This document shows, one piece after another, positions 34,051-57,731 of a DNA stretch of 64,000 bases. Both the position numbers and the translations under genes were made by a program. Under the pieces are notes generated by a model. The model did not search any database. It worked only from the letters and a program-made list of their open reading frames with translations, and was not told the DNA's origin. This DNA is from a virus: IMG/VR virus record IMGVR_UViG_2907408351_000002; one strand, 5' to 3'. How positions within the stretch are numbered: the stretch's first letter is position 1; each line of letters begins with the position of its first letter.

Positions 34051-34325
34051 TTCTGATTCCTCTCTTCTAATCCGGCATTCCGAAGTGCAACGTAGATAAT
34101 ATCCCAAACCCCGCGGAGTTTCCGGTGAATTCCTTCCGCTCTACTCGACTTCCAAACCTTTTTCGGATTAAAATCCTCGCTCTGCATAAACTTCGCATCG
34201 TAGGAACCATAGGCGCCTTTCGTTGCCTCGGTTGTCTTCCGATCATTCGCAATGTATGCGCAAGAGTGTTCTCTTTTTTTAGTCTCGTCGCCATTCGGCC
34301 AGATTTCAACTTTTACTACGATCAT
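34047..34325 (-). CDS. Hypothetical small protein (92 aa)
   Basis: Coupled overlaps both sides. Confidence 0.4.
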   Translation of the reverse strand: MIVVKVEIWPNGDETKKREHSCAYIANDRKTTEATKGAYGSYDAKFMQSEDFNPKKVWKSSRAEGIHRKLRGVWDIIYVALRNAGLEERNQK

Positions 34326-34786
34326 CCTTCACATCCTTTCCCGATTTGGCCGTGGTTATTCAGATCAACAAACTTTGTCCAATGAACCCACCCTTTCTCC
34401 GGACAATGGAATCCCCAGCCCCTAATCGCGGGTCCGGTTATAAAGATCGTCACCGCTGATTGATTTGTAACTTCAATACGATGAGCAAATTTTGAAGAAC
34501 GAAATCTAAACCCAGAGCCGGTGATCCGCTTTTTCTTATGAATTCCCCCTTCCTGGATCGTATGCTCAATGTATTCACCTTCGAGCAATATCGAGAGAGA
34601 AACCCACGGATGGTCATGCAACGCGCGATCATCATCACTCTTTAGAAATCGGTGAAGATAGACGTTGAAGAGTCGGTTCCTTGGAATCAAATACCACCTT
34701 TGCAAATATGGGTCGGCGGGATCACCAATGACAACGTCCGGATTTCGGGATTCTATGATTCTTTTTGCGATTTGTAGGATTCTCAT
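34322..34786 (-). CDS. Hypothetical protein with His/Asp cluster (LHDHPW … FAHRIEV), possible metal-binding
   Basis: Motif read in translation only. Confidence 0.4.
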   Translation of the reverse strand: MRILQIAKRIIESRNPDVVIGDPADPYLQRWYLIPRNRLFNVYLHRFLKSDDDRALHDHPWVSLSILLEGEYIEHTIQEGGIHKKKRITGSGFRFRSSKFAHRIEVTNQSAVTIFITGPAIRGWGFHCPEKGWVHWTKFVDLNNHGQIGKGCEG

Positions 34787-35100
34787 TTTTTCTTCCCTTT
34801 TAATTTTATAATGAATCTTTTCTTACAGGAAGAACAGATGATAACCTTTGCACCTTTCCTTTTCTGTATGAACTTCCCACCACAATCACAGCTTCGTGTC
34901 TCGATAACTGAGTTCACCATTTCATTCATCTGTTCTCGACCTTTTTCCATTTTCCTTTTTTTAATTTCGGGGTGGAGCTCATGAAGAACTCTCTTATATT
35001 CGGAAGAGATACTTTTATTTTCGTGATGAAGTCCGTCGCCTATCATGTCACCAAGTTTGATCAGACGATTACTGAGATATTCTCGACTAATATCTTGCAT
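34783..35100 (-). CDS. Small Zn-ribbon protein (CDCGGK…CSSCKKRF)
   Basis: Cys pairs. Confidence 0.4.
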   Translation of the reverse strand: MQDISREYLSNRLIKLGDMIGDGLHHENKSISSEYKRVLHELHPEIKKRKMEKGREQMNEMVNSVIETRSCDCGGKFIQKRKGAKVIICSSCKKRFIIKLKGKKK

Positions 35101-35606
35101 TAGTTTTCTTTCCTCTCGTGCTTAAGATTATTATGAACCGTGAAACCTTCTTTCTCGAAACAACTTGTGAGGCCGTGATCAATCAATAACTCTACTTGGC
35201 GGGTCCAGTCCTTTTGAATTAAGTCGTAACTATTTCGGAGATCTGTTAATTCGGTTTCTAAAGAGAGAACCTTCTGCTCCAATTCTGCTCTAATTTCGTG
35301 AGGACTTTTTCCTGTATTCTTAACGAGAATTAGAGAGAGAGTTCTTCCGGATAAATCGTTTAGATCGAGTTGTAAGTAATTTTGAATATTCTCGTTATTA
35401 TGAAGAACGTTCTGCATCGTTTCGGCGAAGAACTTCATAAAATTCAAAATCTTCTTCGCGCTAGGCACGTCCTTATCGAAATCGAAGAGCATTTCATTCC
35501 CCGACATGGTGAAACTTATACCTTTTAAAATTTCTTCTTCAAGATATTGCTCTGTTTGAGTCGCTTTAGTTTTACGCGAGATGAGTTCTGTAATAAATTT
35601 CTTCAT
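35100..35606 (-). CDS. Hypothetical protein (start moved to ATG 35606, ATGA overlap with upstream stop)
   Basis: ORF-track start 35675 would overlap Gp37/Gp68 gene by 73 nt. Confidence 0.4.
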   Translation of the reverse strand: MKKFITELISRKTKATQTEQYLEEEILKGISFTMSGNEMLFDFDKDVPSAKKILNFMKFFAETMQNVLHNNENIQNYLQLDLNDLSGRTLSLILVKNTGKSPHEIRAELEQKVLSLETELTDLRNSYDLIQKDWTRQVELLIDHGLTSCFEKEGFTVHNNLKHERKEN

Positions 35607-36625
35607 ACTCTTCCCTTCGGGAATTGCTTCCACTCGACTCCATCGAGCATCGCACCACTTTCTTTTTTCCCGCAACGCAAGGAAACATTGCCGTCATTCC
35701 AATCATGGAACTTTCCTCGTTGATACATCGCTTTTCTGCCTTCTTCAGATTTCGATTGTTCCAATGGAGTAGAGGCACCGCCAATCCACTCCCCCCACTG
35801 TTTAAAGAAAAATGGAACATCCGCGTCAATGCACTGATCGCGTAAATTGCATATCCAATCTGGGTGGACTGGTCGTGCGTGTGGACCTGATTCTCCACCA
35901 ACAACTACCCAATCGAGTTTGTTTCCAGTTCGTGAGTATTCTCCTTCATAACCAATGTAAATATCCCCTGTAAGGGAATTGATGAGTGTCCCATCTTCAA
36001 GTTCTACTTCTTCCAGATTGACGTATTCCAAAAGAGGCTCTTTCGAAATGAAACGGATGAAAGCTGGAGTTTCCAACAATTTCGGGATACGATCGTTAGC
36101 TGTTTTTTGGTTTTCGGCGGATACTCCAAGCCAAACGTTTGGAAGTGGCCATTCAACAGAACCATTCCAGTTATCCTTCATCCATTCAGGGGGCATCTTG
36201 ACATTCTTATTTTGAAAGTTCATCTCCACAAAAGTGTGTGCCGCCTCTCCAATTTCTGACGCGCGAAATTCTCTTTTCATATAATCGAGCATTCTTTCCG
36301 AACGTTTTGTGAGAATTTGGAATGTATGTTGAGGGTTCAATGCTATGACACCAAACACTCTGTCGATGAAGGAGTCAGGAACATCCTTATGAAAAAGATC
36401 GCTCATCGAATTCACAAAAATCTTTGACGGCTTTCTAATACTAAATGGATCCTTCAGCTTTTTATATTTGAATTCTACTTTGGAAAAATCTCGAATCGCC
36501 CACTCTCCAAACTTTCTTTTACTCAAAGTCTCTGCGTAACAGTTCTTGCAACCCGCGGAAACTTTCGTGCATCCGGTTACCGGATTCCAAGTGTGGTCCG
36601 TCCATTCTATCTTAGAGTCTTTCAT
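35603..36625 (-). CDS. Phage Gp37/Gp68 family protein (DUF5131)
   Basis: Characteristic N-terminus M..KIEWTDHTWNPVTGCTKVSAGCKNCYAE. Confidence 0.7.
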   Translation of the reverse strand: MKDSKIEWTDHTWNPVTGCTKVSAGCKNCYAETLSKRKFGEWAIRDFSKVEFKYKKLKDPFSIRKPSKIFVNSMSDLFHKDVPDSFIDRVFGVIALNPQHTFQILTKRSERMLDYMKREFRASEIGEAAHTFVEMNFQNKNVKMPPEWMKDNWNGSVEWPLPNVWLGVSAENQKTANDRIPKLLETPAFIRFISKEPLLEYVNLEEVELEDGTLINSLTGDIYIGYEGEYSRTGNKLDWVVVGGESGPHARPVHPDWICNLRDQCIDADVPFFFKQWGEWIGGASTPLEQSKSEEGRKAMYQRGKFHDWNDGNVSLRCGKKESGAMLDGVEWKQFPKGRV

Positions 36626-37359
36626 TCAGATTTCCTAATGTTATTCAAGATATTCCATGCAAGTCTAACCACTGCTGGAACCTGTCCGTCTCCAATCGCT
36701 TCGGTGCGGTCCACCCGATAGGCCATCCCATTTCCGCTTCCAGCATTTCTGCGGACGGACTCCATCCACCGCTTAGAGTAAGTGCGAGATTCTTCACGGG
36801 TTCGCTGTATCGGTTCGGCGCCTTGCCGAAACCCCATCCCGCTTTCCCCATCGATTTTCGTGGAGTGGGCAACAATCCAAATTCTTTCCCGAATTTGTGG
36901 AGCTCCGGCTTCTTCCGCTGATAGCACTCCGCATTCCGCATCGAAATCCACCGAGGCCAAATCCCCGAGTACTCTATCGAGTCCACGCCTGGTAAGCATT
37001 GGGGAATTTTCCACGAAGACGAAACGGGGTCGAACTTCGCAAATGATTCGGAACATTTCGTGCCAAAGTCCTGAAAATTCTCCGTCGATTCCGGCTCCCT
37101 TGCCTGCCACTGAGATGTCCTGACACGGGAAACCTCCCGAAACCACGTCAACAAATCCACGCCACGGGAATCCGTTGAAGGAACAAACATCGTCCCAAAC
37201 GGGAAACGGTGAAAAGTGTCCTTCAGTTTGTCGCTGGAGGAGTCGTCGAGCGCGATAGGAATTGATTTCCACGGCGCAAACTGTTCTCCAACCAAGGAGC
37301 TTCCCTCCAAGTATTCCTCCACCAGCGCCTGCGAAAAGTGCCAACTCACGCAACCGCAC
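36622..37359 (-). CDS. Compact DNA cytosine-5 methyltransferase (245 aa)
   Basis: Motif I LFAGAGG, IV GGFPCQDIS, VI FVFVENSP, VIII QIRERIW, X-like GDGQVPAVV; minimal target-recognition region. Confidence 0.75.
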   Translation of the reverse strand: MRLRELALFAGAGGGILGGKLLGWRTVCAVEINSYRARRLLQRQTEGHFSPFPVWDDVCSFNGFPWRGFVDVVSGGFPCQDISVAGKGAGIDGEFSGLWHEMFRIICEVRPRFVFVENSPMLTRRGLDRVLGDLASVDFDAECGVLSAEEAGAPQIRERIWIVAHSTKIDGESGMGFRQGAEPIQRTREESRTYSKRWMESVRRNAGSGNGMAYRVDRTEAIGDGQVPAVVRLAWNILNNIRKSE

Positions 37360-38362: not shown

Positions 38363-38592
38363 AACCGTTCTCCTCGAAAGATTTCAAAGAAACATCCAGT
38401 CATCGGTTTCTTGAGTCCTCTTTCCAAAATGTTCTCTTTACCTATGTAAATTGGATTTGGATTTTCAATCGGTGCCCTACTTAAAGTTTTAGAAAACAAA
38501 TCGACCAAAGCAAGGAAACACATGACAATCACGAGAACTAAAATAGTATCCCGTAAAACAAGTAACGTCTCTTTGCTTTGATCCATTTCCAT
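38359..38592 (-). CDS. Small membrane protein (77 aa)
   Basis: ORF track. Confidence 0.3.
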   Translation of the reverse strand: MEMDQSKETLLVLRDTILVLVIVMCFLALVDLFSKTLSRAPIENPNPIYIGKENILERGLKKPMTGCFFEIFRGERL

Positions 38593-38996: not shown

Positions 38997-39587
38997 TTAT
39001 ACTGCGCTGAACAATTGGCGGTCTTCAGCTTTGACTATAAATTCTATTCTAATTTTTCTATAACATTCTTCCGCAAAATATTTTCTTGCGACCATACTTA
39101 CTGACTCGGGCAAAGGACTTAGAATTTGAATCAAATCCTTTTCAACCTTGATCTCGACCTTTTCTAAAAGTTTATTACTTGAAGGGGTTAATCTTTCTTT
39201 TGCCCAATTCAAAAATCCTAGCCAAGTGGGTTCTTTAATTGTCGCTAAAGATGCGAGTTTGTTTTCTGAATTTATAAATGGAAGCGAGGTAAAATCAGGA
39301 ACAAAAAGTAAATCAGTCGGAATCGTTACGACATAAATATTTGATCTTCTATTTCCTCTCCGTTGTTTTATGAGCCATCCCCGCTTCACGAGTTTATTCG
39401 TAAGTTGAGAAATCCTCCTCGGTTTCAATCTTCCACCTAATCTCCTGGAAATCGTATTTAAAGTTGGCCAACAATTTGCATTATGACCCTGAAAAGACCA
39501 AAGTACTATCCAAACAATCGCTTCTGAATACGGTAGATTTAAAAGAGCCGACAAAGGGGCGAATTCGAAATCTTTCTTCTTTTTCAT
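38997..39587 (-). CDS. Putative replication protein (phage replisome-organiser-like winged-helix N-terminus)
   Basis: …CWPTLNTISRRLGGRLKPRRISQLTNKLVKRGWLI… resembles replisome organiser N-domain; start moved to ATG 39587 (ATGA overlap). Confidence 0.4.
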   Translation of the reverse strand: MKKKKDFEFAPLSALLNLPYSEAIVWIVLWSFQGHNANCWPTLNTISRRLGGRLKPRRISQLTNKLVKRGWLIKQRRGNRRSNIYVVTIPTDLLFVPDFTSLPFINSENKLASLATIKEPTWLGFLNWAKERLTPSSNKLLEKVEIKVEKDLIQILSPLPESVSMVARKYFAEECYRKIRIEFIVKAEDRQLFSAV

Positions 39588-40018
39588 TCTGCCTTTTCGC
39601 CACCCTGGCAATTAGCCAAAAATTCATCTGGAGTTGTTAAATAAATCAGTCTTTCTGCTTGTTCATGTAGGTTTCGATCTCTCAACCATTCAAGTCTCGC
39701 GTCGACGCTCGTATTTTCGTCGTATCCTCCTTTACCTGTATGGAGTGAAGCATTGAGACAAAACATATTTAAAGGGTCCCAAGGCACGTATTTTGTATAT
39801 CTTGTTCTTCTTCCGAGGAGATGACAGACAACGAAATTATTTGAACCTGTTACAAGACACCTTTGGTCCATCTTTCTTCTCTTATTCATTCCATCCTTCA
39901 TACGTTTGGCTGCCTTTGTTGGCTCTTTTGTGCGTCGAGATTCTTGGTAGCGCTTCGCAGATTCCCTTCGTTTATTTTCCCAACGTAACATTCTTTCGTA
40001 TTGAGTCTCACGATTCAA
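39584..40018 (-). CDS. HNH-endonuclease-like protein
   Basis: …CLVTGS…VVCHLLGRR…DPLN…CLNASLH… Cys/His/Asn pattern. Confidence 0.35.
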   Translation of the reverse strand: MNRETQYERMLRWENKRRESAKRYQESRRTKEPTKAAKRMKDGMNKRRKMDQRCLVTGSNNFVVCHLLGRRTRYTKYVPWDPLNMFCLNASLHTGKGGYDENTSVDARLEWLRDRNLHEQAERLIYLTTPDEFLANCQGGEKAE

Positions 40019-42048: not shown

Positions 42049-42333
42049 TCATTTTGCTTTCCTTCCTCCATTGTGCTTTATTCCATTCTTTTTAATCGAA
42101 AGTTTGATTCGTTTCGATTCGCAATGCCGGCATATGTTTAAGAAAAATTTCTGTTTCCATTTTACCGGAAACATCCAAAGTTCCTTTGTCGCTTCACATA
42201 CATCGCATCGTCTCACGGTGTGAATGAGCTCCTTACCGAATTCTTTTACCATCCTCTCGTAAGCTCTTCGGAGACGAACATTATCCCGGCCGCCTGCGTT
42301 CTGGAAGGAAACCTTTCCTTTAAACGACTTCAT
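42049..42333 (-). CDS. Small Zn-ribbon protein (start uncertain; ORF-track start 42432 overlaps sbcC-like gene)
   Basis: CDVCE…CRHCE motif. Confidence 0.3.
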   Translation of the reverse strand: MKSFKGKVSFQNAGGRDNVRLRRAYERMVKEFGKELIHTVRRCDVCEATKELWMFPVKWKQKFFLNICRHCESKRIKLSIKKNGIKHNGGRKAK

Positions 42334-44704
42334 AGTCCACCTCAAGCAACTCATCCTCGGCCTCAAATTCTTCGGACCCAAAGGATAGATCGTAAATTTT
42401 TCCATTTTTAACTTCAAAAATTCGATCCGCAAGTTCTTGAATCGCCTTCTTGTGAGTAATAAAAATCACTTGTTTGAATCGACCTTCTTCAATCGCTCGA
42501 TCTAGCATTTTTTGGTATTGGAAAACGGTATCGGAATCTAATCCTCCGTCGGATTCATCCCGAAGCAGCGTTTGAATATCCGCTCCAAATTTGTTCCGTT
42601 TATATACCGCCACTCCTAATGAAATCGCTTCATTGAGAATGTTCCCTTCTCCGCCAGATTTATTTTTAATTAAGGATTCGATACCGGTCCGGTTATCCAA
42701 TACTGTAACTGAAAAATCCTCTTTAGAATTCCCGGTCGCGTTTTCTCTTAAAGTATTGATTTTGATTTGAAATACTCCGGGGAAAGATTCCGCGAGAATC
42801 GAATTGATTGCCGAAGATATTTCGGGACCGGCAGCGTCGACCATCAAGGCGCGGGCTCCTTTTGGACCAAGTGCCTCACAAATGGATCGCAATTTTCCGA
42901 GTTGGGTTTCTTTTGAAATTCTTTCTTCATTGAGATCTGAAACTCTTTTCTCATTTTTTAATGCGATTTCTAGTTTAGCAGAATGAGAACCGATTTCCTT
43001 TTCTATCTCAGATTTAGATTCCTGCAACGGCGTGAGAAGTTCTTCGGAATCTTTGAGTTCTTTTTCCGCATTTGTGATTGCTGTCTCCTCGTCCGATTTC
43101 GCGTTTATAAGAATTTCGGTTTCTGATTTGAGAATATCTTTTCTAGAATTTGATTCTTTTAGTTGCTGGATGCTTTTTTTGTAGTCCTCAATTTTTTCTT
43201 CCGCGGTTTCTAAATATGGAATCAATTTTACCAAATCAGTATGTGTGGAATCTTTCAACTTTGCTTGAAGCGATTCCAATTCTTTTTCTAAATCAGAGTA
43301 GGTGCTTTTCGCGAGCAGAAATTCCGGAATTGATTTAAGATTAAGAAGTTCATCTTCGATCTGTTTGATCTCCGATTTTCGAATCGAAATGAATTCCTCA
43401 TCGATCTTAATATCCGAGATTTGATTTTCGAGCTCTTCTAATTTTGTTAAAAGCGGAGGGAGTTCCGCTTGAGACACCCTTGCATCTTTAAGTAGCGGGC
43501 AGGCTTCCGGGAGATCAATACCTTCGATAATTTTCCCGCGGCAAGGGACTTCGCTAAGAAGCCTTGTTTTTGATTGAGTTTCCTTGATTTTAGAAGCAAG
43601 ACCGGCTTTTTCTACCTGTAGTTTTGTTCTTATCTCAGATTGAATTTTGTTTTCTTTCTCTTGAGGAGAAATTTCATTTTCAAGTTTTGTTTTTTTTGAT
43701 GAGAGCTCATTTTCTTTTTCTTCTACAAACTTTTCCTGATCTTCAAGACTTTTCTTTGCTCGCTCTTTTTTAGGAAGTATTTCTCTCTCCTTCTTTTCCC
43801 ATTCCTTTTGATTCAACTCTGCTTCTCTGATTTCTCTGGATCGAGCAAGCAGTTGAGTTTTATTTGCTTCAATTTTTTTCTCGAATCCTTCGATTGAAGA
43901 AACGTCTGAAGCAATTTCTTTCCGAATCGCTTCCAGTTTGTCCTTTAATTCGGATATGTCTTTGAAATTTGCTCTTAGGTCCGCTAACCTTTGTCTTTTC
44001 TCATTCGAATCTTGAGTTACCTTTTCGATTTCCTTTATCTTTGCGTTTAAGATTTCTTGTTTCGTATCCAATTCTTTTCGGAGATCAACGGATGATTCGG
44101 AATTGGAAATCATTTGAATACCAGACTTTATTCCTTCTAATTCCTTAGATACTTTTGTTCGCTTCGTATCAAAGAATGAAAATTGTTTGTCGTATTCACT
44201 AAAATTTAGAAGGTCATCGAAAAGTTCGCGAACATCTTTTTGGTCTAACCCAGTAAGTCTACCTTTTCCGGTTTGGGCATGGTAGATTGCGGATAAAAAC
44301 ACTCTTTCGGTGATTTTTGTTACTTCAAAGAGTTTATCGTTGAAGTCCTTTATTTTTCCTTCTGAAACCGCTTTCCCATCAATATAGAGATACGGTATTT
44401 GTTTTCTGGATACCGGATCGATTAGTCGTTTAGCGTGGATCGTGTGGCCGTTCATCGAAACTGTCGATTCGACAAATGAATCACGAGCGATAAAACAATC
44501 GTAAATCGCGCCTTCATCCCGGCCGGAAGCGGATTCGCGCAGGGGAGTTTTCCCAAACCAGGACATGAAGAGCGTATCCATCAATGAGGATTTTCCCGCA
44601 CCGGTTCTTCCTACGATCGCGATTTTCTTAAGATTAGGGATTCTAAAATCAGTTTCTTCAGGGAAAGCAATCATCCCCTTTGTTTTTAGTGCTTCGATGA
44701 TCAT
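42320..44704 (-). CDS. sbcC: SbcC/Rad50-like ATPase (794 aa)
   Basis: Walker A IVGRTGAGKSSL, long coiled-coil, C-terminal signature KSGGEGN and D-loop LLRDESDGGLD. Confidence 0.75.
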   Translation of the reverse strand: MIIEALKTKGMIAFPEETDFRIPNLKKIAIVGRTGAGKSSLMDTLFMSWFGKTPLRESASGRDEGAIYDCFIARDSFVESTVSMNGHTIHAKRLIDPVSRKQIPYLYIDGKAVSEGKIKDFNDKLFEVTKITERVFLSAIYHAQTGKGRLTGLDQKDVRELFDDLLNFSEYDKQFSFFDTKRTKVSKELEGIKSGIQMISNSESSVDLRKELDTKQEILNAKIKEIEKVTQDSNEKRQRLADLRANFKDISELKDKLEAIRKEIASDVSSIEGFEKKIEANKTQLLARSREIREAELNQKEWEKKEREILPKKERAKKSLEDQEKFVEEKENELSSKKTKLENEISPQEKENKIQSEIRTKLQVEKAGLASKIKETQSKTRLLSEVPCRGKIIEGIDLPEACPLLKDARVSQAELPPLLTKLEELENQISDIKIDEEFISIRKSEIKQIEDELLNLKSIPEFLLAKSTYSDLEKELESLQAKLKDSTHTDLVKLIPYLETAEEKIEDYKKSIQQLKESNSRKDILKSETEILINAKSDEETAITNAEKELKDSEELLTPLQESKSEIEKEIGSHSAKLEIALKNEKRVSDLNEERISKETQLGKLRSICEALGPKGARALMVDAAGPEISSAINSILAESFPGVFQIKINTLRENATGNSKEDFSVTVLDNRTGIESLIKNKSGGEGNILNEAISLGVAVYKRNKFGADIQTLLRDESDGGLDSDTVFQYQKMLDRAIEEGRFKQVIFITHKKAIQELADRIFEVKNGKIYDLSFGSEEFEAEDELLEVDYEVV

Positions 44705-45879
44705 AAAACGCTTTCCTCTATTCTCAACCCTTCAGTCATTTCAAAATACCCCATCCGATATTCTTCCAATAACCCATGGATCTCACTTTCTGGTTTATTT
44801 TTTGCCCGGAAATATACGATAACTCCGTCTTCAATAGACTCGACGGATCCGATTTCTTCCGACCGAACCGCGACAGTTGAAATGGTGTTCCTTTCAGGTT
44901 TCAACTCTGTTGCATTGGGGAAAAATGATTCGAGTTTTTTCGGAACTGAATGAGAAAGCGATTCCGGAACATCAAGACGTATCCGGATCTTTCCTTTGAA
45001 TTCCGACGGTTCCAGAATTTTTCCGGATTCCTTATCGATAAGGTTTTCACCATCCCAGTTGAGGTTCACGGTTCGCATCGGGGCCGGATTCAGGGAAATG
45101 AAATCAGGTTCTAGTCGCCAAGATCCTTCTTCGATTTCCCAAATAAGAATCCCTTTATCGTCTTCCGCCTCTCCCCAGGTTTGTCGGGTCGTTGATCCAG
45201 AATACCAAATCCATTTACCGATCTTCTGGCAAAAATGATAGTGTCCACCAACCACCGGACAACCGAATGAATCCAGGATCGTCTGAGGAAGAAACATACC
45301 ATTGTTTCTGGGGATTCTCTTGTTATCTAGTACTGCACCTGAAACTGTCCCGTGGAATAAAACCAGAGAGGGTCCGGAATAGTTTCGAATTTTTTGAAAC
45401 CAATCTTCAAGTAAATCTACGATCAGGTTGTTTCCCTTTGAATGGAAATCCTCAATCGATTGATTTTGGAGCGCGAGCGCTCCGGCGCCGAAATGCGGAA
45501 GCGCGAAGACCTGAATTCTTTCAAGCGAATCCGGAAGAACTATGTGACCCGGCTTATCAAATTCGTAACAAAGAGGATTCAGTTTATCCTTGAACGATCT
45601 TAAATCCTTTGGTTTGTCGTGATTTCCTCGTAGGATAATTGTCGTGATTCCCGCACTATGAAGGGTATCGAGGAAGATTCTGAAAACAAGCCTTTGCTCA
45701 GGGTCGGAAACATCCTCGAAGATATCCCCGTTGACACAAACGATCTTGCACCCTTTTTCGATAAAGATACCGGCGGCTTTCATCAGAGCCACCGCCTCTT
45801 CCGTACCTTCGCCACCGCGGAGATGAATGTCTGCTATTTGTCCTACGATCATTGCTTTCTCGCTCCGAGTTCTTTCCAT
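44701..45879 (-). CDS. sbcD: SbcD/Mre11-like nuclease (calcineurin-like phosphoesterase)
   Basis: Motifs DIHLRGG, VCVNGDIFED, LRGNHD. Confidence 0.8.
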   Translation of the reverse strand: MERTRSEKAMIVGQIADIHLRGGEGTEEAVALMKAAGIFIEKGCKIVCVNGDIFEDVSDPEQRLVFRIFLDTLHSAGITTIILRGNHDKPKDLRSFKDKLNPLCYEFDKPGHIVLPDSLERIQVFALPHFGAGALALQNQSIEDFHSKGNNLIVDLLEDWFQKIRNYSGPSLVLFHGTVSGAVLDNKRIPRNNGMFLPQTILDSFGCPVVGGHYHFCQKIGKWIWYSGSTTRQTWGEAEDDKGILIWEIEEGSWRLEPDFISLNPAPMRTVNLNWDGENLIDKESGKILEPSEFKGKIRIRLDVPESLSHSVPKKLESFFPNATELKPERNTISTVAVRSEEIGSVESIEDGVIVYFRAKNKPESEIHGLLEEYRMGYFEMTEGLRIEESVL

Positions 45880-48206: not shown

Positions 48207-48220
48207 TTTACATTGTCAAC
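48207..48220. promoter_or_regulatory. Operator O2-like imperfect copy TTTACATTGTCAAC overlapping the CI-like start codon
   Basis: Shares TTTACA…TG half-sites with O1. Confidence 0.35.
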
Positions 48221-48611
48221 AGATAAATTTAAAGATTCAAAATACAGAATTCAAGAGATTTTGGACTCAAGCGGATTGGCGAAAAACGAATTCGCTGATC
48301 GGCTCGGGATCACGAAGGGTCAAGTATCTCATCTCTTATCCGGAGCGAGGAAACCTTCTCTAACGTTATCTAAACTTATAAAGTTTGAATTTGGATATTT
48401 AGAAGAGTGGACTTTTAAAGGAGAAGGTCCGATGAAATACTCTCCTCCTGGAAAGGAAGAGATGTTTAGGAAAATGGAAGAAGAAGAAAACTTTCAAAGA
48501 AAAATTAGAAATACAGAGGGAGCTCGGGAATTCGTGATGGAATATTTCGAACTGACCCCTGAGAGTCGTTCGATTTTTCTCAACTTAATGCGAAATCGAA
48601 TGAAAAATTAA
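48213..48611 (+). CDS. CI-like repressor (HTH_XRE family, no S24 peptidase domain), TTG start
   Basis: …LAKNEFADRLGITKGQVSHLLSG… HTH; divergent to Cro-like. Confidence 0.5.
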   Translation: MSTDKFKDSKYRIQEILDSSGLAKNEFADRLGITKGQVSHLLSGARKPSLTLSKLIKFEFGYLEEWTFKGEGPMKYSPPGKEEMFRKMEEEENFQRKIRNTEGAREFVMEYFELTPESRSIFLNLMRNRMKN

Positions 48612-48629
48612 TAAGAAATTTTTTACCTT

Positions 48630-49532
48630 TTACTTCAATCGATGTTTAAATTTATCGTATAGTTTTTTTGATCTTGCCCTGACATTCATATTTAAAGATT
48701 CACTTAAATAATTATTCTCTAGAAGTATTCCCGCGGTTACCGCAATCTTGCTTTCTGCTAACTTTAGATTATACCCTGCCGGATCCAATACGTTATACAG
48801 CGTCATCATTATACTAGAAGAATACCGAGACAAAATCGGAGTGCGCTCCCCCTCTAGAATTCTTTCTCGAATTTCAAACGTATCGTAATGAAGTACTGCA
48901 ACCGCCCAAAATAAAAAGAAAGGGATGAATCCGAACGCCGACTTTGAAGCCCAAAAATATCCGAAAAGAGGCATTATCCAAACACAAAAAATTGTGAATA
49001 ATAAAGCCATGATGGTTCCTGCTGAAAGAAGGAATGCCCGTATCCGTAAGTCACCGGAAAATCGAAACACCGACCTAACTAAGACTGCACAAGAAAAAGA
49101 GATATATGTGAATTCATAAAGGATTATTGCGTGATAATTTATCGTAGGCCGATATGTGAATCGTTCTGGATCTTTTATTTCTACTGCATTACACAGAAAC
49201 ACTGAGCCTATCATATAAATGAAGCCAAATAAATGTATTTGAGAAATCGTCGAACCGATCTTTAGCTCCGGGCGAAAAATCAAACGAACTATTTGGAAGA
49301 GTGAATGCGGTACAAATAAGATTGGAATCAACGTCCAGTTTAACGCAAGTTCGCGGAGAAATTCTGGTAAGAGAATACGAAATCCGTGACAGAACATCCA
49401 AACTGACAAAGCCAAGGATAATTGGAAAAAATGCTTTTGAGCAATCTTTCCTGACCCTACATTCCGAACATAAAAACCTAAAAGAACAATGAACAACCCA
49501 ACCGAAACGCTAAATATGTTTGTTACTTGCAT
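48630..49532 (-). CDS. Polytopic membrane protein (~8 TM, 300 aa); exosortase-like or sensor/transporter candidate
   Basis: Eight hydrophobic segments; SCAVLVRS motif; last gene of cargo operon. Confidence 0.5.
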   Translation of the reverse strand: MQVTNIFSVSVGLFIVLLGFYVRNVGSGKIAQKHFFQLSLALSVWMFCHGFRILLPEFLRELALNWTLIPILFVPHSLFQIVRLIFRPELKIGSTISQIHLFGFIYMIGSVFLCNAVEIKDPERFTYRPTINYHAIILYEFTYISFSCAVLVRSVFRFSGDLRIRAFLLSAGTIMALLFTIFCVWIMPLFGYFWASKSAFGFIPFFLFWAVAVLHYDTFEIRERILEGERTPILSRYSSSIMMTLYNVLDPAGYNLKLAESKIAVTAGILLENNYLSESLNMNVRARSKKLYDKFKHRLK

Positions 49533-49562
49533 GAAAAATGTATACTCAATACTGCATAAATA

Positions 49563-50186
49563 CTACATTTTCGAGGCAATTTTTTGTAAACATTCTTTTT
49601 CCAACTCGATCACATGGAATTTAGATAGTTTGCCGTTCAAATAAAATCCCGGAAAATAAAGTAAATCCGGATATCTCTCGGAATGAACGGCGCCTTCACT
49701 CAAATAGAGCTTTTCTATTCCTTTCAAATTTGGGTTGTACATTCCGTAGACAACGTCGTATCCCTTTTCATAACAGTGCTTCGCAACGGTTCTAAATGTT
49801 TTTTTTGCGGCCATCCACCCCGTTCGACTCAACTCAAATGCGACTGCGTTCCAATCTGCGACGTTCTCCGAAAGAACCGCGTAACGTATCGGTTTTTCCA
49901 AGGTCTTATCCAGAACTGCAACCTCCAGAGGTAGAAAATTTTCCGGCTGTTTCTCTACGACCCTCATTGCGGATAAGATCCTTCCCTCCTCCTCAGCGAA
50001 AAACCATGTCGACCAGTCATCGTAATCTATGTTTTTCCAACGAGAAGAAGAATAGCCTGCCTCAGAAAATATACGATTTACGAAAGCCTTTATACGCGGG
50101 ATGTCCTCGCTATCCCCGGATACGATTTTCACGGGAATTTGAGTTCTTGATTTTCGAACGGAATACTCGAGAGGATTTACGGACAT
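49563..50186 (-). CDS. LuxI/FeeM-like N-acyl synthase (autoinducer-synthase fold) candidate
   Basis: R-IF…GY, NIDYDD, EGRILSAMRVV, FELSRTGW align by eye to LuxI blocks R..VF..LGW, E.D.YD, G.v.GC.RLLP, WELSRF. Confidence 0.5.
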   Translation of the reverse strand: MSVNPLEYSVRKSRTQIPVKIVSGDSEDIPRIKAFVNRIFSEAGYSSSRWKNIDYDDWSTWFFAEEEGRILSAMRVVEKQPENFLPLEVAVLDKTLEKPIRYAVLSENVADWNAVAFELSRTGWMAAKKTFRTVAKHCYEKGYDVVYGMYNPNLKGIEKLYLSEGAVHSERYPDLLYFPGFYLNGKLSKFHVIELEKECLQKIASKM

Positions 50187-52019: not shown

Positions 52020-52760
52020 ATGAAAATTGTCGCAATTTGCTCGGGCAAAGGTGGCGTCGGAAAAACAACGACGACGATCTATCTTGGTCAATCCCTCGCT
52101 TATTTAGGGTTCCGCGTCCTCCTAATTGACTTTGATTTTAACTCAAATTTGAGTAAGTTTTTCTTCAAACTCTTCAAAGACGTCGTGAACGAATCGGAAG
52201 GAAAAAATTCGTATAAAGCACTAGTCGATGGTTGCGATTTTGAACCTCATATCTACAAAACCGGAACGAAAATAGATTTCATTTCGACAATCGAGCGTTT
52301 GAAAAAAATTGACTTTGAATTCTATGATGACCCAGGGTTTAAATCACTGTTTGGAAGAGAGCTCCGAAAATTGGATTACGATTTCGTTCTAATCGATCTT
52401 CATAACGTTGTGAACGTGGTGTTGGACGCTGCGGTATTTAATGCGGATCAAATTGTTTCTCCAATGGAATACGGAGATTGGAGCCAGGATGGAACCGCAA
52501 AAATCTTAAAGCTCCATCGCGAAAATGAAATATTACAGAAAAGAAAAATCCCACTAAGAGTCGTACCTTCTCGGGTAACAAAAAAAAAGGCGGAGAAAAT
52601 CATTTCCCTCGGTGCGCAGGTCGGTCTGACTGTCAGCGGGTGCGTAAATATCAATGATGATGTCGTGCTCACGAGCTCAAACCTTGGCGAGCTATTGAAG
52701 CCCGATGTTCATGCCGCATTTGCGCGTTTCCTTGAGCTTGCGAAGGAGGTTTCAATTTGA
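52020..52760 (+). CDS. parA: ParA partition ATPase (small type-Ib-like)
   Basis: Deviant Walker A KGGVGKTT at N-terminus, 246 aa. Confidence 0.85.
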   Translation: MKIVAICSGKGGVGKTTTTIYLGQSLAYLGFRVLLIDFDFNSNLSKFFFKLFKDVVNESEGKNSYKALVDGCDFEPHIYKTGTKIDFISTIERLKKIDFEFYDDPGFKSLFGRELRKLDYDFVLIDLHNVVNVVLDAAVFNADQIVSPMEYGDWSQDGTAKILKLHRENEILQKRKIPLRVVPSRVTKKKAEKIISLGAQVGLTVSGCVNINDDVVLTSSNLGELLKPDVHAAFARFLELAKEVSI

Positions 52761-53377
52761 GTACTCCTGAAAAAAAACCCACTAAACAAGAACGTGTCGA
52801 CGCCGAGCTCGTGAAGACATTTTCGGCAAATAACGAGAAACTTCCTGCAATGAGTTCATCAGATGAGGATCCGGCGCTTACGAGACTGAAGGAAGCATAC
52901 GCATCTGTAATTTCTGCTCAAAAAAGAACCATTAAAGTTGCTATCGAATTCGGGGCAATTTTATACGAGGTGAAGCAACAGCTTAACCACGGTGACTGGT
53001 CTAAGTATATTGAGGACAACTATAACTTCCTAAAGTTTGGAACACGTGTCGCGAGTTCTTACATGAGAATTTACGACTATCGGGATCGGGTTGGAGAATG
53101 CAGAAGTATTAGAGAAGCGGATACTCTTATTCAGAGCATCATCGCTGGTGAACTTCCAGGTCCTACCGAAAAAGAAATCAACCCACCTCCCAAAAAAATT
53201 ACTCCTGAAGCCATCCTTATATTGAGAAAGCGCTTAAAAAAGGAAGGCAAAAGTTCCCTTAAAAAAAGGGAGATTTCTGAGCTAAAAAAATATCTCGATG
53301 ATATTATTAACTCGAAGACTCAGAAGTTCAATGATTCGATAAAACCGATCCAAGAAGAAAGGGATTTGCTTGAGTAG
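52757..53377 (+). CDS. Putative partition adaptor / centromere-binding protein (ParB-function, not ParB-fold)
   Basis: 4-nt overlap with parA; basic C-terminus. Confidence 0.45.
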   Translation: MSTPEKKPTKQERVDAELVKTFSANNEKLPAMSSSDEDPALTRLKEAYASVISAQKRTIKVAIEFGAILYEVKQQLNHGDWSKYIEDNYNFLKFGTRVASSYMRIYDYRDRVGECRSIREADTLIQSIIAGELPGPTEKEINPPPKKITPEAILILRKRLKKEGKSSLKKREISELKKYLDDIINSKTQKFNDSIKPIQEERDLLE

Positions 53378-53387
53378 GCAAATCGGA

Positions 53388-53411
53388 AGCGCGCTTCCGA
53401 TTTGAGAGGCC
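53388..53411. promoter_or_regulatory. Perfect 24-bp palindrome AAATCGGAAGCG|CGCTTCCGATTT followed by T7 run (terminator and/or protein-binding site)
   Basis: Read directly. Confidence 0.45.
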
Positions 53412-53439
53412 TGATTTTTTTATTCAGATGGCAAAAAAT

Positions 53440-53826
53440 GTGTACCCAAAATCGTACACGGGTTTTAGAGTACCGAGAGAAAGGAAGGCGCCCGCCTAAA
53501 CCTTTTCTGTTTCGATGCCTGCGGCGGAGGTGAGAGTCCACGCAGGTTTTTCTCCCGCCTAAAGCACGTTCCAAGAGACATAAATTTTTATGAGACATAG
53601 TATTATTATGCTTGACTGTTTTTTCAAAAATCCCGCTAGTCTGTACCCGTTTAGTCGACATAGCTAAACAACGGCCACTCTCACAATTCGGCCGAATGAA
53701 ACAGAAAAGGGAACCATACTTTCGGCTCCACGCTCGATCTATGCTTCTCGATTCCAAAGAGTAGGGTAGTCCATCTGCCGTGCCGCACCCGATTTATGTC
53801 CGGCGCCTCAGAAAAGGAAAAGGATC
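53440..53826. other. Origin-like non-coding region upstream of rep: direct repeats CCCGCCTAAA (53499-53508, 53562-53571), palindromes GTGTAC…GTACAC (53447-53466) and ATTCGGCCGAAT (53694-53705), AT-rich block 53590-53640
   Basis: Repeats read directly; GC-richer than flanks; overlapping minus-strand ORF 53320..53757 looks non-coding (Arg/Cys-rich). Confidence 0.4.
53526..53559 (+). terminator. Hairpin CCTGCG-17 nt-CGCAGG + T5
   Basis: Read directly. Confidence 0.45.
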
Positions 53827-54528
53827 ATGAAAGAATTGATCTATGGCGAGTTCATACCTCGCACTATAATCAACACCAAACTTGGCAGAGGAATGCGTGA
53901 CGTCCTCGCAAAAATTACGCTCCTCGATATCAACGGACGCATCGAAGGTCGCGGTGGATGCTACGCAGGGAATGAATACTTGGGTCAGGTTTTAGGAATG
54001 GCGACGACGACCATAGCAAAATATATTTCTCGCCTACGAAAAGCTGGTTACATAAATCAAGTTTCTTTCAACGGAAGGATTCGAGTAATTCAATCAAGTT
54101 TTCATGACGCCGTTATATTCGAAAGAGCTCAGTATCAAATATCCAAAACCGCCGTTCAAAACGATCCTAGTCAGAATAGTACGGATGGTAAGGGCAGGGG
54201 GGTACGAGATTCCAAATCTGCCAAAGATAAACGTTCCGCTCCTGTACGTACTAAAGAAGAGAGAGCAAAAACAGTAAATCTACCGGGTGCTGATAAATTG
54301 AAACCGACTTGGAGCGATTTCCAGCCTTGGTATAAGGATCGCTTAACAAAATCAAGTATAGATATTTTAGATAATCTTCAATTTGAATTCGTACATGATA
54401 AATTGATAATTTTGTGTGGAGTTCCGAATTCATTAAAAATGATTATCGAGAAATTCTTCACTGAAGAAGTCGTCACTCCAATTCAGGTTGTATTTCGCGA
54501 ACAGCATAAGGAGAGAACGGCCGCATGA
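53827..54528 (+). CDS. Putative replication initiator (winged-helix)
   Basis: …LGQVLGMATTTIAKYISRLRKAGYINQV… HTH; position next to parAB and iteron-like repeats. Confidence 0.4.
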   Translation: MKELIYGEFIPRTIINTKLGRGMRDVLAKITLLDINGRIEGRGGCYAGNEYLGQVLGMATTTIAKYISRLRKAGYINQVSFNGRIRVIQSSFHDAVIFERAQYQISKTAVQNDPSQNSTDGKGRGVRDSKSAKDKRSAPVRTKEERAKTVNLPGADKLKPTWSDFQPWYKDRLTKSSIDILDNLQFEFVHDKLIILCGVPNSLKMIIEKFFTEEVVTPIQVVFREQHKERTAA

Positions 54529-54612
54529 TTACTGTCGCATTAACGAGTAGTTTTTTAAAAGGAACAAAAGAGTAAAATTGACTTTCTTTTATAGGTATAC
54601 TAATGTGTAGTT

Positions 54613-55065
54613 GTGGCGATTTCAGAGATAGAAATTCTAAAACCAAAATTTACGCCTGGAAACGAATACCCGTTCCTTGAAGGAATAAGCGCGGGCTTCT
54701 CATCTCCGGCGGAAGAGTATTTAGAAAACGTTCTCGATTTGACAGAAGCGGTCGTGAAAAATCCGAATTCAACTTTTTTCGGACGGGTCCGTGGAAACTC
54801 GATGATCGGCGCGATGATTGCGGAAGGGGACATCCTCGTCATAGACAAATCTGTTCGACCGATTGATGGAGACCCGGTGGTTTGTTCGATTGATGGGGCC
54901 TTTCTCTTGAAGTTTCTTAAAATAGAAAAAAGTGAAGGGTGGCTGATACCGGCAAATCCCGAATACAAGCCGATTCGAGTCACGAAGGAGAATGATTTCC
55001 AGATTTGGGGGACCGTCATGTGGATAACACACAGGGCCAGAAATGTACGCGCTTATCGACTGTAA
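54613..55065 (+). CDS. umuD: UmuD-like S24 peptidase (LexA C-terminal domain family), GTG start
   Basis: Ala-Gly cleavage site (GISAGF), GNSM active-site Ser, downstream Lys (FLLKFLK). Confidence 0.8.
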
Positions 55066-56305
55066 TTCCTTCTACGTTTCTTGTGAGCGTATTTTTAGAC
55101 CGGATCTTCAAAAAAAACCGGTTGTCGTTCTTTCGAACAATGACGGGTGCGTTGTATCGCGGAGCCAGGAAGCAAAAGACCTCGGGGTAAAAATGGGAGA
55201 AGCGGTTTTTCTCCGAAAGGAATATTTCACGGAAAACCGGATCGAAATGTTTTCTTCCAATTATACTCTATACGGAGATATTTCCAGAAGAGTAATGAAT
55301 CTTCTTTCCGATTTCTCTCCGGAAATGGAAATCTATTCCATCGATGAGGCATTCCTGGGATTTTCCGGCATCGCAGAGGAAAGCCATCCGGGAATCGCGA
55401 GACGAATCAAGGAAACGATTCCGAGAAACACCGGAATTCCTGTGAGCGTCGGCATGGGACCAACTCGGACGCTTGCGAAACTCGCGAACCATATCGCGAA
55501 GAAGCGAAAAGAATATAACGGAGTCTATATCATAAAAAACGAAAGCGTCAGAGAAGAAGCGCTCCGGATGGTATCGATCGGGGACGTTTGGGGAGTCGGC
55601 CCGAGTTACCGGAAGAAACTTGAAAAGGTAGGGATCGAAACCGCATATGATTTTTCCCGGATGAATGTCCACTGGGTTCGGAAAAACTTAACGGTCGTCG
55701 GTGCGCGGATGAATTACGAACTCCGAGGAATTCCCTGTTCTGGTCTCGTTCCTCCGGACGCGGAAAAAAAATCGATTTCGATCGCCCGGTCTTTCGGAGA
55801 GATGCAGGAAGATTTCGATTCAATGGCCGCGGCAGTTGCTACTTTTGCGAGCCGTGCCGCCTACAAACTCCGGAGGCAAAAAAGTTTTGCGAATATGGTT
55901 CTCGTTTTTATTCATACAAACCCGCACAGGCAAGATCTGGAGCAATATGCCCGGAACATCGTTGTCCGACTCCCGGTTGCTTCGGATTCCACCTTTGAGA
56001 TTGTTCGCTACGCACTCGCCGGACTTCGGCAGATATACAAACCAGGATTCAAATATAAAAAAGCCGGGATCGTTTTGGACGGAATTGTTTCGGGAACCGG
56101 AATTCAGCCGGGACTTTTTGATTGCGTCGATCGTCCACGGGATGCGAAAATCATGGAAGTCATAGACTCGATGAATTCGAAATTCGGTAAGGAGCGGATC
56201 CGTCTCGCTGTTACCGCCCAAAAAGACTCTTGGAAACTTAGACAGGAACACCATTCCCCGAACTATACGACTGACTGGAAGGAGATAATCAATGTGCTTT
56301 CATAA
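55043..56305 (+). CDS. umuC: UmuC-like Y-family DNA polymerase
   Basis: N-terminus [15 protein letters not shown]… and …SIDEAFLG… catalytic motifs. Confidence 0.9.
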
Positions 56306-57026
56306 CTCGATGTCAGCGGACGCGATGAGTCTGAAGAAGAGATACAACGCCGAGCTGATTCATCCGGAAAAATTCCAGCCAATATACCACGAAAACGCTT
56401 TCCAACATCGCCCGCGCCCTATTATCACCGGAGACAACCCGAAGTTTATTCAAAATTTCGTTTGGGGCCTAATTCCTTCCTGGACAAAGACGGAAGTTTC
56501 CGCAAAGGAAATTCAAGAATATACTCCGAACGCTAGATCAGAATCGGTTTTTGAAAAGCCGTCATTTCGTGGTGTGATCAGGTCTAAGCGTTGTCTCATA
56601 CCATCGACTGGTTTTTTTGAATGGCAGGACTTCAAGGGAAAGAAATACCCCTATTTCATTTTTCTGAAAGACCAGGAGATCTTTTCTTTTGCAGGTATTT
56701 GGGATTCTTGGAAGAATCCAGCATCGAAAGAAACAATATACTCATTCTCCATTTTAACAACGGACGCGAATAAATTCATGTCCCGGATCCATAATTCTAA
56801 AAAAAGGATGCCGTTGATACTTCCGAAGAAAGAGGAGGGGGCTTGGATAAATCCGGATCTGAAAGATGAAAAAGAAATTCGAAAATTGTTTAAGATTTTC
56901 CCAGAAGAAAAAATGGAAGCCTACACAATCTCAAAGTTGATAACATCGAGAAAAGAAAACTCAAATACTTTGGAAGTAAATTTAGAGTTCAGTTATCCGG
57001 AGTTGACCGAAGAGAATTTATTTTAA
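56292..57026 (+). CDS. yedK: SRAP/YedK-family abasic-site processing protein
   Basis: Cys2 start (MC…), [37 protein letters not shown] align to E. coli YedK blocks. Confidence 0.85.
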
Positions 57027-57041
57027 AAAAAAGAAGGTGCT

Positions 57042-57632
57042 ATGTTTGATTGCGATTGTTTGTTCGATTGGAAGGAAGTTTACTCATTGTTAAAAGATTT
57101 CTTGGCATTCATTTTAGGAGTCTATACAGTTTGTATCGCGAAGGAAGGTTTGAAAACATGGAAGGAGCAAATTCGAGGAGGGAATAATTATCAGCTCGCG
57201 AAAAGAATACTTATTAAGTTAAATAAATTGCGAAATGAATTGAGAAAATTAAGGTCTCCAATTCGGTTTGCAAAATATAACGAATTTCTTATTGGGGCTC
57301 CTGACGAATTTAAAGAAACAATAAAAGAGGAATGGAGAGGCGTATCAAATTCGTATGCAGAATTAGAATTCGATATTTATGAAGCAGGAATAGTTTTTGG
57401 AGAAGAATTTAAGGAAAAATTTAAACCAGTAATGGCTTATATAATTAATATTGAAGGAGAATTAAATCTATTTTTATCTGAAGCCATAACAAAAGGAGAT
57501 TCTCAAAGGTTAGGATCGGAAATTTTTGGATCGCCTACTTTGGCAGGGGTGGAATCAGATCATGATGCTAAATTCAAAGAATTAATTCAATCCGTCGAAA
57601 ATATATTAAGAAAGCATATTTCAATTTCATAA
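57042..57632 (+). CDS. Hypothetical protein (196 aa)
   Basis: ORF track. Confidence 0.4.
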   Translation: MFDCDCLFDWKEVYSLLKDFLAFILGVYTVCIAKEGLKTWKEQIRGGNNYQLAKRILIKLNKLRNELRKLRSPIRFAKYNEFLIGAPDEFKETIKEEWRGVSNSYAELEFDIYEAGIVFGEEFKEKFKPVMAYIINIEGELNLFLSEAITKGDSQRLGSEIFGSPTLAGVESDHDAKFKELIQSVENILRKHISIS

Positions 57633-57731
57633 AGAAGCAATATACAAAATGTGAAAGATGTGTCATTCGCTCAACTTACATCAAAAAAATTACTCCATTG
57701 AACGCACCTAATTGATTTTTCTTGAACAAAG

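Follow-up and report, generated by a model that had tools for sequence, protein, structure and literature searches.

The IMG/VR virus record IMGVR_UViG_2907408351_000002 carries three overlapping genes, for a UmuD-like protein, a UmuC-like Y-family DNA polymerase and a protein of the SRAP family, within positions 54,613-57,026 of the 64,000-nucleotide (nt) stretch analyzed here (the window, which covers 64 kb of a contig of 68,871 bp assembled from run ERR3047368). The question raised by this locus is whether these genes form a working operon that answers DNA damage, and what such an operon would do on a mobile element. Our analysis indicates that the gene set is real and that the operon is intact, functional-looking and probably DNA damage-inducible. 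We favor the reading, with a probability of about 0.7, that an LE1-like Leptospira phage-plasmid carries the cassette as a self-contained accessory operon, which would supply the host with an inducible Pol V-type bypass polymerase together with an abasic-site shield.

The three genes lie on the + strand. The umuD-like gene (54613-55065) starts with GTG and encodes 150 amino acids (aa), the umuC-like polymerase gene (55043-56305) starts with ATG and encodes 420 aa, and the SRAP gene (56292-57026) starts with ATG and encodes 244 aa. The TAA stop codons of the first two genes were read from the sequence at 55063-65 and 56303-05, and the overlaps are therefore 23 nt between umuD and umuC and 14 nt between umuC and SRAP; the open reading frame (ORF) calls and the sequence reading thus bear out the three ORFs, coordinates and overlaps given by the first-pass annotation, which had been made from the letters alone. 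A Shine-Dalgarno sequence, AGGAG (56280-56284, + strand; likewise read from the sequence), falls within the last codons of umuC and is separated by 7 nt from the ATG of SRAP, and umuC itself is preceded by a weak AGGG. From the overlaps and the AGGAG before SRAP, we infer, as seems reasonable, that the translation of the three genes is coupled. The assigned identities hold as well, with profile matches far beyond chance, and no second S24, Y-family or SRAP paralogue was found in the window by phmmer. The catalytic residues that had been named beforehand as a refutation test (the D/E triad of UmuC and C2/E/H of SRAP) are all retained on alignment.

The UmuD-like protein appears to be a self-cleaving S24 accessory subunit with a full-length N-terminal arm. 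It covers the full Pfam Peptidase_S24 model (PF00717, 7.7e-28), matches the 'UmuD-like' family phrog_811 (1.6e-41), and scores 134.4 bits against the NCBIfam UmuD model, above the cut-off of 110. Its A27-G28 aligns with the cleavage site C24-G25 of E. coli UmuD (PDB 8GMT and 1UMU), and S63 and K100 align with the E. coli Ser/Lys dyad S60 and K97, in agreement with the AG cleavage site and dyad noted at first pass. Self-cleaving S24 proteins also serve as repressors, typically in temperate phages, and a weaker match to the 'transcriptional repressor' family phrog_4 (2.5e-22) would fit a damage-sensing cI/LexA-like repressor that controls induction of the prophage rather than a subunit of Pol V. 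We regard this assignment as very improbable: the protein is only 150 aa long and has no DNA-binding domain, its S24 match begins at residue 20, behind a short arm that holds the cleavage site, it fails the NCBIfam LexA cut-off (72.2 bits versus 110.95) while passing that for UmuD, and its gene overlaps umuC in every relative.

The polymerase likewise retains the features expected of its family. Matches to Pfam IMS (1e-38), IMS_C (1.4e-18) and DUF4113 (1.8e-18), the last being the UmuC-type C-terminal domain, and to phrog_1268 (2.4e-148) agree with the earlier Y-family assignment, and residues D6, Y11, D101 and E102 align with D7, Y12, D105 and E106 of Dpo4, which places the catalytic triad D6/D101/E102 and the steric-gate tyrosine intact. 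A clamp-binding-like motif, QPGLF, found by pattern only, is present at residue 355. After the UmuC model, the next-best NCBIfam match is a Pol IV (DinB) model at 173.7 bits. By these scores the polymerase is UmuC-like and clearly nearer to UmuC than to any Pol IV model, but it is not a curated UmuC equivalog; its relatives carry the label 'Y-family DNA polymerase' from PGAP in RefSeq.

The third protein matches the SRAP family over residues 1-218 (Pfam PF02586, 1.1e-55) and phrog_1599 (7.7e-60). It starts with Met-Cys, in keeping with the Cys2 nucleophile named at first pass, and its N-terminus, MCFHNSMSA, is common to its nearest solved relative, PDB 2F20 (4.6e-60). In an alignment of the window protein with 46 SRAPs from related loci, C2, N80, H167 and R172 are present in all 47 sequences and E110 in 46. 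Residues N80, E110 and H167 align with the active-site equivalents of HMCES, for which we take the numbering to be N96/E127/H210 in HMCES and N75/E105/H160 in YedK. The protein thus has the fold family and the active site (Cys2, Asn, Glu and His) of E. coli YedK and human HMCES, and differs from both in having three extra residues between its catalytic His and its RMP motif (IHNSKKRMP versus IH-DRRP/IHHRMP). A displaced catalytic His, as a comparison of IDNTKH in 2F20 with IHNSKK in the window might suggest, was rejected, the histidine of the IH pair being invariant among the 47 sequences. The name 'yedK' does not survive: against the YedK model (NCBIfam PRK09951) the protein scores 42.7 bits, the cut-off being 349. 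By sequence, it is not a YedK orthologue but a member of the 'MCFHNS...' subfamily whose solved representative is 2F20, and 'SRAP family' is the label to be used.

The position of SRAP behind a polymerase gene allows another role for it. The protein may serve chiefly as a regulatory subunit or gatekeeper that binds the Y-family polymerase physically, forming a UmuC-SRAP complex, instead of shielding abasic sites on its own. The linkage of the two genes is tight and conserved, with the 14-nt umuC overlap in all Leptospira copies, and SRAP-like proteins figure among the putative PolY-binding regulatory subunits of a 2026 survey (PMC12926913). Against this role, the full cross-linking site (C2, N80, E110, H167 and R172) is kept in 46-47 of the 47 sequences, which argues that the chemistry is retained, and UmuD, the canonical small subunit, is encoded as well. 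We consider a mainly regulatory SRAP improbable, if deserving of some weight; the two roles are in any case not mutually exclusive, and an SRAP that shields abasic sites may also restrain, co-operate with or bind Pol V.

The cassette promoter is located in the 84-nt region upstream (54529-54612). A -35 hexamer, TTGACT (54578-54583, + strand), is followed after 17 nt by a -10 hexamer, TAATGT (54601-54606, + strand; read from the sequence), which ends 6 nt before the GTG. TTGAC is invariant in nine of nine aligned Leptospira cassettes, and TAATGT matches TATAAT at three of six positions, hence its absence from the list of a consensus promoter scan. Over this -10 lies an imperfect dyad, GTATACTAATGTGTAG (54595-54610), which ends 2 nt before the GTG and has one mismatch to the 16-nt LexA1 box of L. 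interrogans, CTnnACnnnnGTnnAG, obtained by chromatin immunoprecipitation sequencing (PMC4756842). This LexA1-type SOS box emerged when the window was searched with the L. interrogans LexA1 consensus, the first-pass annotation having proposed a search of the upstream region with the LexA motif of the host; its remark that no recognisable LexA box lay upstream is not borne out, given the one-mismatch box here and the exact box in three relatives. With mismatches allowed, the region 54400-54640 contains no TTTG-N5-CAAA (older leptospiral), TTGTA-N10-TACAA (LexA2), CTGT-N8-ACAG (E. coli) or GAAC-N4-GTTC (Gram-positive) box.

Chance statistics give a first measure of this site. In the whole window, a scan with at most one mismatch to CTnnACnnnnGTnnAG returned six sites versus 11.8 expected by chance, and for DNA of this kind chance alone would give one exact consensus match in about 84 kb. 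The other five one-mismatch sites (38436, 39730, 46217, 49694 and 60525) were dismissed as lying inside ORFs, with a total below chance; the site at 38436 was inspected and the other four were placed in ORFs by their coordinates. The dyad at 54595-54610 is also the only site in the window within two mismatches of CTATAC-N4-GTATAG, a half-site pattern that was derived from recA and recN snippets in PMC3789691 after the window site had been seen, and is to be weighted lightly.

Comparative conservation provides a stronger test of the putative box than these statistics. Positions -18 to -3 relative to the start codon, which the box fills in the window, read GTAAACTAATGTGTAG in L. stimsonii and L. 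ainazelensis, with one mismatch, and CTAAACTAATGTGTAG in Leptospira sp. WS92.C1, L. kmetyi and L. sanjuanensis, with no mismatch and a 5/6 dyad; Leptospira sp. FAT2 has a two-mismatch version. The block TAAACTAATGTGTA forms a conserved island in the cassette alignment, as the 12-13 nt up to the -35 and the first codons vary, and upstream of the -35 the sequence is wholly different between the two cassette groups. The cassettes of L. interrogans and L. noguchii keep the promoter geometry (TTGACT, 17 nt, TAAATT or TAGATT, 6 nt, ATG). The start codon lies 6 nt past the -10, with no Shine-Dalgarno sequence, in nine of nine Leptospira cassettes, so that a leaderless umuD-umuC-SRAP mRNA is probable. 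Such transcripts are common in Leptospira, with 5' untranslated regions shorter than 10 nt in about 440 genes of L. interrogans (PMC5243855).

Several observations weigh against an operon under host LexA control. The -10 of the window is weak, its box is mismatched at position 1 of the consensus (G for C), and the host LexA and its regulon lie outside the scope, since the window holds the element only. At the -10 of the L. interrogans and L. noguchii cassettes the LexA1 box is missing, and they have only a two-mismatch site over the -35; such sites arise about 2.4-2.9 times per kb by chance, so this one is not evidence, and because that lineage is without the box, LexA control is not universal for the module. 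Since the -10 and the start site both fall within the conserved block, its conservation could partly reflect promoter function alone. Leaderless mRNAs that begin with GUG are translated efficiently only in some bacteria. On the protein side, the UmuC-like polymerase aligns over 1-418 of the 422 positions of the NCBIfam UmuC model and scores 392.1 bits, below the cut-off of 431. Finally, the proposals on LexA binding, on induction and on where transcription starts, like those on UmuD cleavage, polymerase activity and cross-linking, are inferences guided by the literature on E. coli Pol V, YedK and HMCES. As a separate observation, the -35 region of the L. interrogans and L. noguchii cassettes reads TTTGACTAACGTAAAT or ATTGACTAACGTAGAA (7541-7556 in locus L002 and 7553-7568 in locus L003); the AC-N4-GT core is kept with two outer mismatches, a likeness at chance level that could be a relic or a weak operator.

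The promoter observations among these would fit an operon that lies outside host LexA control altogether, the 14-16 nt block then being the core promoter and start site, or the operator of a regulator encoded by the element, and expression being constitutive or tied to the lysis-lysogeny decision. Such a block would hold the -10 and abut the start codon, as observed, and the L. interrogans and L. noguchii cassettes manage with the promoter geometry and no box. A candidate regulator is available, for example the HTH_3 protein at 48213-48611, and HTH_3 and HisKA_7TM genes stand just upstream of umuD in many relatives. By comparison, a core promoter does not readily account for a 5/6 dyad that matches the experimentally derived LexA1 consensus exactly in three lineages, or for conservation that extends past the -10 on both sides (5-6 nt upstream and 4 nt downstream) while the spacer and the first codons vary. 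Furthermore, the prior chance of finding a site in 84 nt is about 0.02-0.03 if one mismatch is allowed, and falls to about 0.001 if the match has to be exact. We therefore regard control independent of LexA as unlikely, although it is a serious contender, and retain host LexA1 as the favored regulator.

Is the cassette then a unit that is maintained, or one that happens to have been picked up? A megablast search with 54300-57300 found nothing among PLSDB plasmids, and a sensitive blastn search of phages found only a 130-nt umuC-like patch in an Enterobacter phage; with no near-identical record in either collection, relatives were sought at the protein level. By tblastn against plasmids, the triad is present on at least 12 L. 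interrogans and L. noguchii plasmids, at about 57% identity for UmuC, about 50% for SRAP and 50-54% for UmuD. These copies are annotated in RefSeq (PGAP) as umuD, Y-family DNA polymerase and SOS response-associated peptidase, and several of the plasmids carry a divergent leptophage capsid gene. In the protein database, the closest UmuCs are those of L. stimsonii (92% identity) and L. ainazelensis (89%), with further relatives in Leptospira sp. FAT2 and in sp. WS92.C1 (labelled plasmid), L. kmetyi and L. sanjuanensis (58-61%). Of the Leptospira UmuC relatives retrieved, each lies on a plasmid or has a longest carrying contig of 47-87 kb, and the triad has the same gene order in all Leptospira relatives retrieved (five of five protein-database look-ups), down to 56-61% UmuC identity, which points to selection on the triad. 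Beyond the genus, the best UmuC matches have about 50% identity, and the overwhelming majority belong to Bacteroidota and allied phyla. In about half of the 79 nearest non-Leptospira (Bacteroidota/FCB, mostly Bacteroidota) loci, an 'MCFH...' SRAP is encoded at most about 130 nt downstream of umuC, with UmuD upstream in nearly all.

The boundaries of the cassette are sharp. In a blastn comparison with the L. ainazelensis contig, homology covers exactly 54574-57027 at 82% identity, beginning 4 nt upstream of the -35; the Rep genes upstream and the ORFs downstream are unrelated, and homology returns near 57685. Because this homology is set between unrelated flanks, the cassette with its promoter appears to behave as a discrete module (about 54574-57027). 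It also appears to be optional cargo: among the UmuC matches in the phage collection there is no Leptospira phage record, LE1 included, and the two plasmids with the closest head proteins (86.9% identity) are not among the top UmuC-bearing plasmids. This dispensability to the element is what one would expect if the cassette were an inert or decaying passenger. That explanation is hardly credible, given three intact frames with conserved catalytic residues, and a gene order and overlaps that persist among lineages whose UmuC identity is as low as 56-61%. We favor an accessory operon that is optional for the element and looks functional.

The slot directly past SRAP is filled differently from relative to relative, with an orphan ORF of 196 aa (57042-57632, + strand) as its occupant in the window. 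This ORF begins 15 nt past SRAP behind a GAAGGTG ribosome-binding site. It has no Pfam, PHROG or PADLOC match and is absent from all related loci; no + strand terminator is predicted between it and SRAP, and it is possibly co-transcribed with SRAP while lying outside the conserved module. The same slot contains a HigB/HigA-like toxin-antitoxin pair in L. stimsonii (L084, 6087-7178) and an AcrVA2-like protein in FAT2 (L086, 6353-7363) and in WS92.C1, where a Type ISP restriction enzyme follows (L088, 6385-9329); the corresponding region of L090 (6295-7431) was also compared. The slot looks like a hotspot for defence and anti-defence genes.

Taken together, these data can be drawn into a mechanism, in which the steps of repression and induction come from the sequence and the comparative data, and those of UmuD, the polymerase and SRAP from the characterised E. 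coli and human homologues. In the undamaged cell, host LexA1 would sit on the dyad at 54595-54610, covering the -10 and likely the start, and keep the operon off. Upon DNA damage, activated RecA would stimulate self-cleavage of LexA1, and transcription would begin at or beside the GTG to give a leaderless umuD-umuC-SRAP mRNA, from which the 23- and 14-nt overlaps and the internal AGGAG would keep the three products coupled. On RecA filaments, UmuD would cut itself at Ala27-Gly28 through Ser63/Lys100 to yield UmuD', and a UmuD' dimer with UmuC and RecA-ATP would form the active polymerase, with D6/D101/E102 for catalysis and QPGLF as the tether to the clamp. By analogy with Pol V, this enzyme would copy past lesions at the price of mutations, while SRAP, acting as an abasic-site shield in the manner of its homologues, would guard such sites against breakage and against uncontrolled mutagenic bypass. 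For the element, the presumed benefit is survival and replication in damaged hosts, under conditions that also induce prophages.

The setting of the cassette is consistent with a phage-plasmid, as had been proposed at first pass. The window encodes a major head protein (phrog_752; 69.6% identical to its counterpart in Leptospira phage LE1), tail sheath, baseplate wedge and tail fibres, and a portal gene lies on the same 68,871-bp contig just outside the window. Directly upstream of the cassette is a plasmid maintenance block (52020-54528, + strand), which comprises ParA (52020-52760; ParA families), a DUF3102 ParB-like protein (52757-53377) and Rep (53827-54528; HTH_36, and a match to the replication initiation family phrog_2880 at 2.4e-70). 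With virion genes, Rep and ParA on one replicon, the designation LE1-like Leptospira phage-plasmid is justified on gene content. A perfect 26-nt palindrome, CAAATCGGAAGCG/CGCTTCCGATTTG (53379-53404), begins 2 nt past the stop of the ParB-like gene, in the 450-nt gap before rep, and is a candidate parS/centromere or terminator; a terminator-like hairpin is predicted at 53393-53410. A second Rep-like protein of 204 aa (38997-39611, - strand; HTH_36, 3.9e-09), whose C-terminal 72 residues are 35% identical to Rep (E = 2e-12), may be a second replication initiator or one for lytic replication.

Other genes of the element deserve mention. Directly upstream of umuD in the L. interrogans, L. noguchii, L. 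kmetyi and L. sanjuanensis elements stands a trio of genes, for an HTH_3 regulator (+ strand), a HisKA_7TM membrane protein (- strand) and a protein of about 207 aa (- strand), at 5387-7354 in L002, 4893-7376 in L003, 1439-3390 in L090 and 1363-3301 in L091. In the window the trio is found at 48213-50186, about 4.4 kb from umuD, with the ParA/ParB-like/Rep block in between, and its linkage points to a neighbourhood inherited from a common ancestor or to a regulatory tie. On the - strand at 42320-45879, a 794-aa protein with weak matches to the LmuB/JetC SMC-like ATPases adjoins a 392-aa calcineurin-like phosphoesterase, a pair that resembles an SbcC/SbcD-type nuclease. A cluster of genes of the DNA-modification and repair type (32405-37359, - strand) includes a D12 N6-adenine methyltransferase (32405-33244), an MmcB-like protein (33241-34107), a DUF5131 protein (35603-36625) and a C5 cytosine methyltransferase that looks truncated (36622-37359; model positions 4-169 of 324). 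The cluster showed no restriction enzyme as a partner, and its methylases may be orphan, anti-restriction enzymes. In the virion region, a 613-aa protein (10674-12515, + strand) matches phrog_23773 at 871 bits and has a central domain of about 150 aa common to giant phage proteins with annotations such as DarB-like antirestriction, minor head or endolysin; a possible identity is an enzyme that is injected or associated with the head.

As an arrangement, the cassette is already known: the SRAP-UmuCD neighbourhood has been described, the Leptospira copies are annotated in RefSeq, and PHROGs families exist for all three proteins. In the collection of papers searched, none was found that discusses the umuD-umuC-SRAP copies of Leptospira plasmids. 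The details added here are the conserved candidate LexA1 box, the probable leaderless start and the apparent restriction of Leptospira Pol V and of this type of SRAP to extrachromosomal elements. Studies of the L. interrogans SOS response name Pol IV alone as the inducible bypass polymerase (PMC3789691, PMC4756842). We tentatively suggest, as a possibility rather than an expectation, that Leptospira have no chromosomal Pol V and obtain SOS mutagenesis and an SRAP shield only from plasmids and phage-plasmids, through a Bacteroidota-like cassette that came under a host LexA1 operator and escaped this control in the L. interrogans-type lineage. If so, gain or loss of the element would switch the damage-induced mutability of a strain on or off, with SRAP tuning the hand-over of abasic sites to the polymerase. 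Error-prone bypass polymerases of mobile elements are classic drivers of stress-induced mutation, and if Pol V is element-dependent in Leptospira, plasmid content would affect the tolerance of ultraviolet and oxidative stress and the supply of mutations in environmental and pathogenic leptospires alike. The compact umuD-umuC-SRAP operon would also be a convenient natural system in which to study the interplay of SRAP cross-links and Pol V at abasic sites, a matter relevant to bacteria and to HMCES.

The cassette can be compared with several characterised systems. Its likenesses to E. coli umuDC are a UmuD that has the (C/A)-G site and the Ser/Lys dyad of self-cleavage, the D/DE triad and UmuC-type C-terminus of UmuC, overlapping genes and a LexA operator, putative in the window, at the promoter. 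The E. coli umuDC operon is chromosomal, has a leadered mRNA and contains no SRAP gene, yedK lying elsewhere. The E. coli LexA box, CTGT-N8-ACAG, is also of a different sequence and absent at the window promoter. Mobile homologues of Pol V, namely mucAB of pKM101, impAB, rumAB of R391 and humD of P1, which is likewise a phage-plasmid, are cargo of plasmids, integrative and conjugative elements and temperate phages; to our knowledge, none of them has SRAP in its operon. P1 HumD is a pre-processed UmuD' that lacks the N-terminal arm, whereas the UmuD-like protein of the window is full-length and scores 54.8 bits against the HumD model, below the cut-off of 120. Phage-borne copies of UmuC and UmuD are many in the phage collection.

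The Bacillus prophage SPbeta likewise carries SRAP and Y-family bypass genes on a temperate phage, as yoqW (its SRAP 35.7% identical to that of the window) and uvrX/yolD, and the presence of SRAP in temperate phages such as SPbeta has been noted before (PMC3765255). It differs from the window in having YolD rather than UmuD as the accessory subunit (PMC12926913), and its genes do not form a three-gene overlapping operon. The SRAP-UmuCD gene neighbourhood itself was described in 2013 by Aravind, Anand and Iyer as one of the three contexts behind the name SRAP (PMC3765255). The umuD-umuC-SRAP operons of Bacteroidota have the same architecture as the window cassette; by comparison, their genes are usually 9-20 nt apart instead of overlapping, and they lie mostly on large contigs or chromosomes rather than on phage-plasmids. 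Close counterparts are the cassettes of L. interrogans and L. noguchii plasmids such as pLiSL27 (NZ_CP092668.1) and p1_LIP1611024 (NZ_CP091949.1). These differ in their ATG start and in having no LexA1 box at the -10, and the plasmids that carry them are of another leptophage lineage, whose head protein is about 30% identical to that of the window. They have the same genes in the same order, the same 14-nt overlap of umuC and SRAP, an overlap of 17-23 nt between umuD and umuC, and the same promoter geometry, on plasmids that likewise carry a phage capsid gene.

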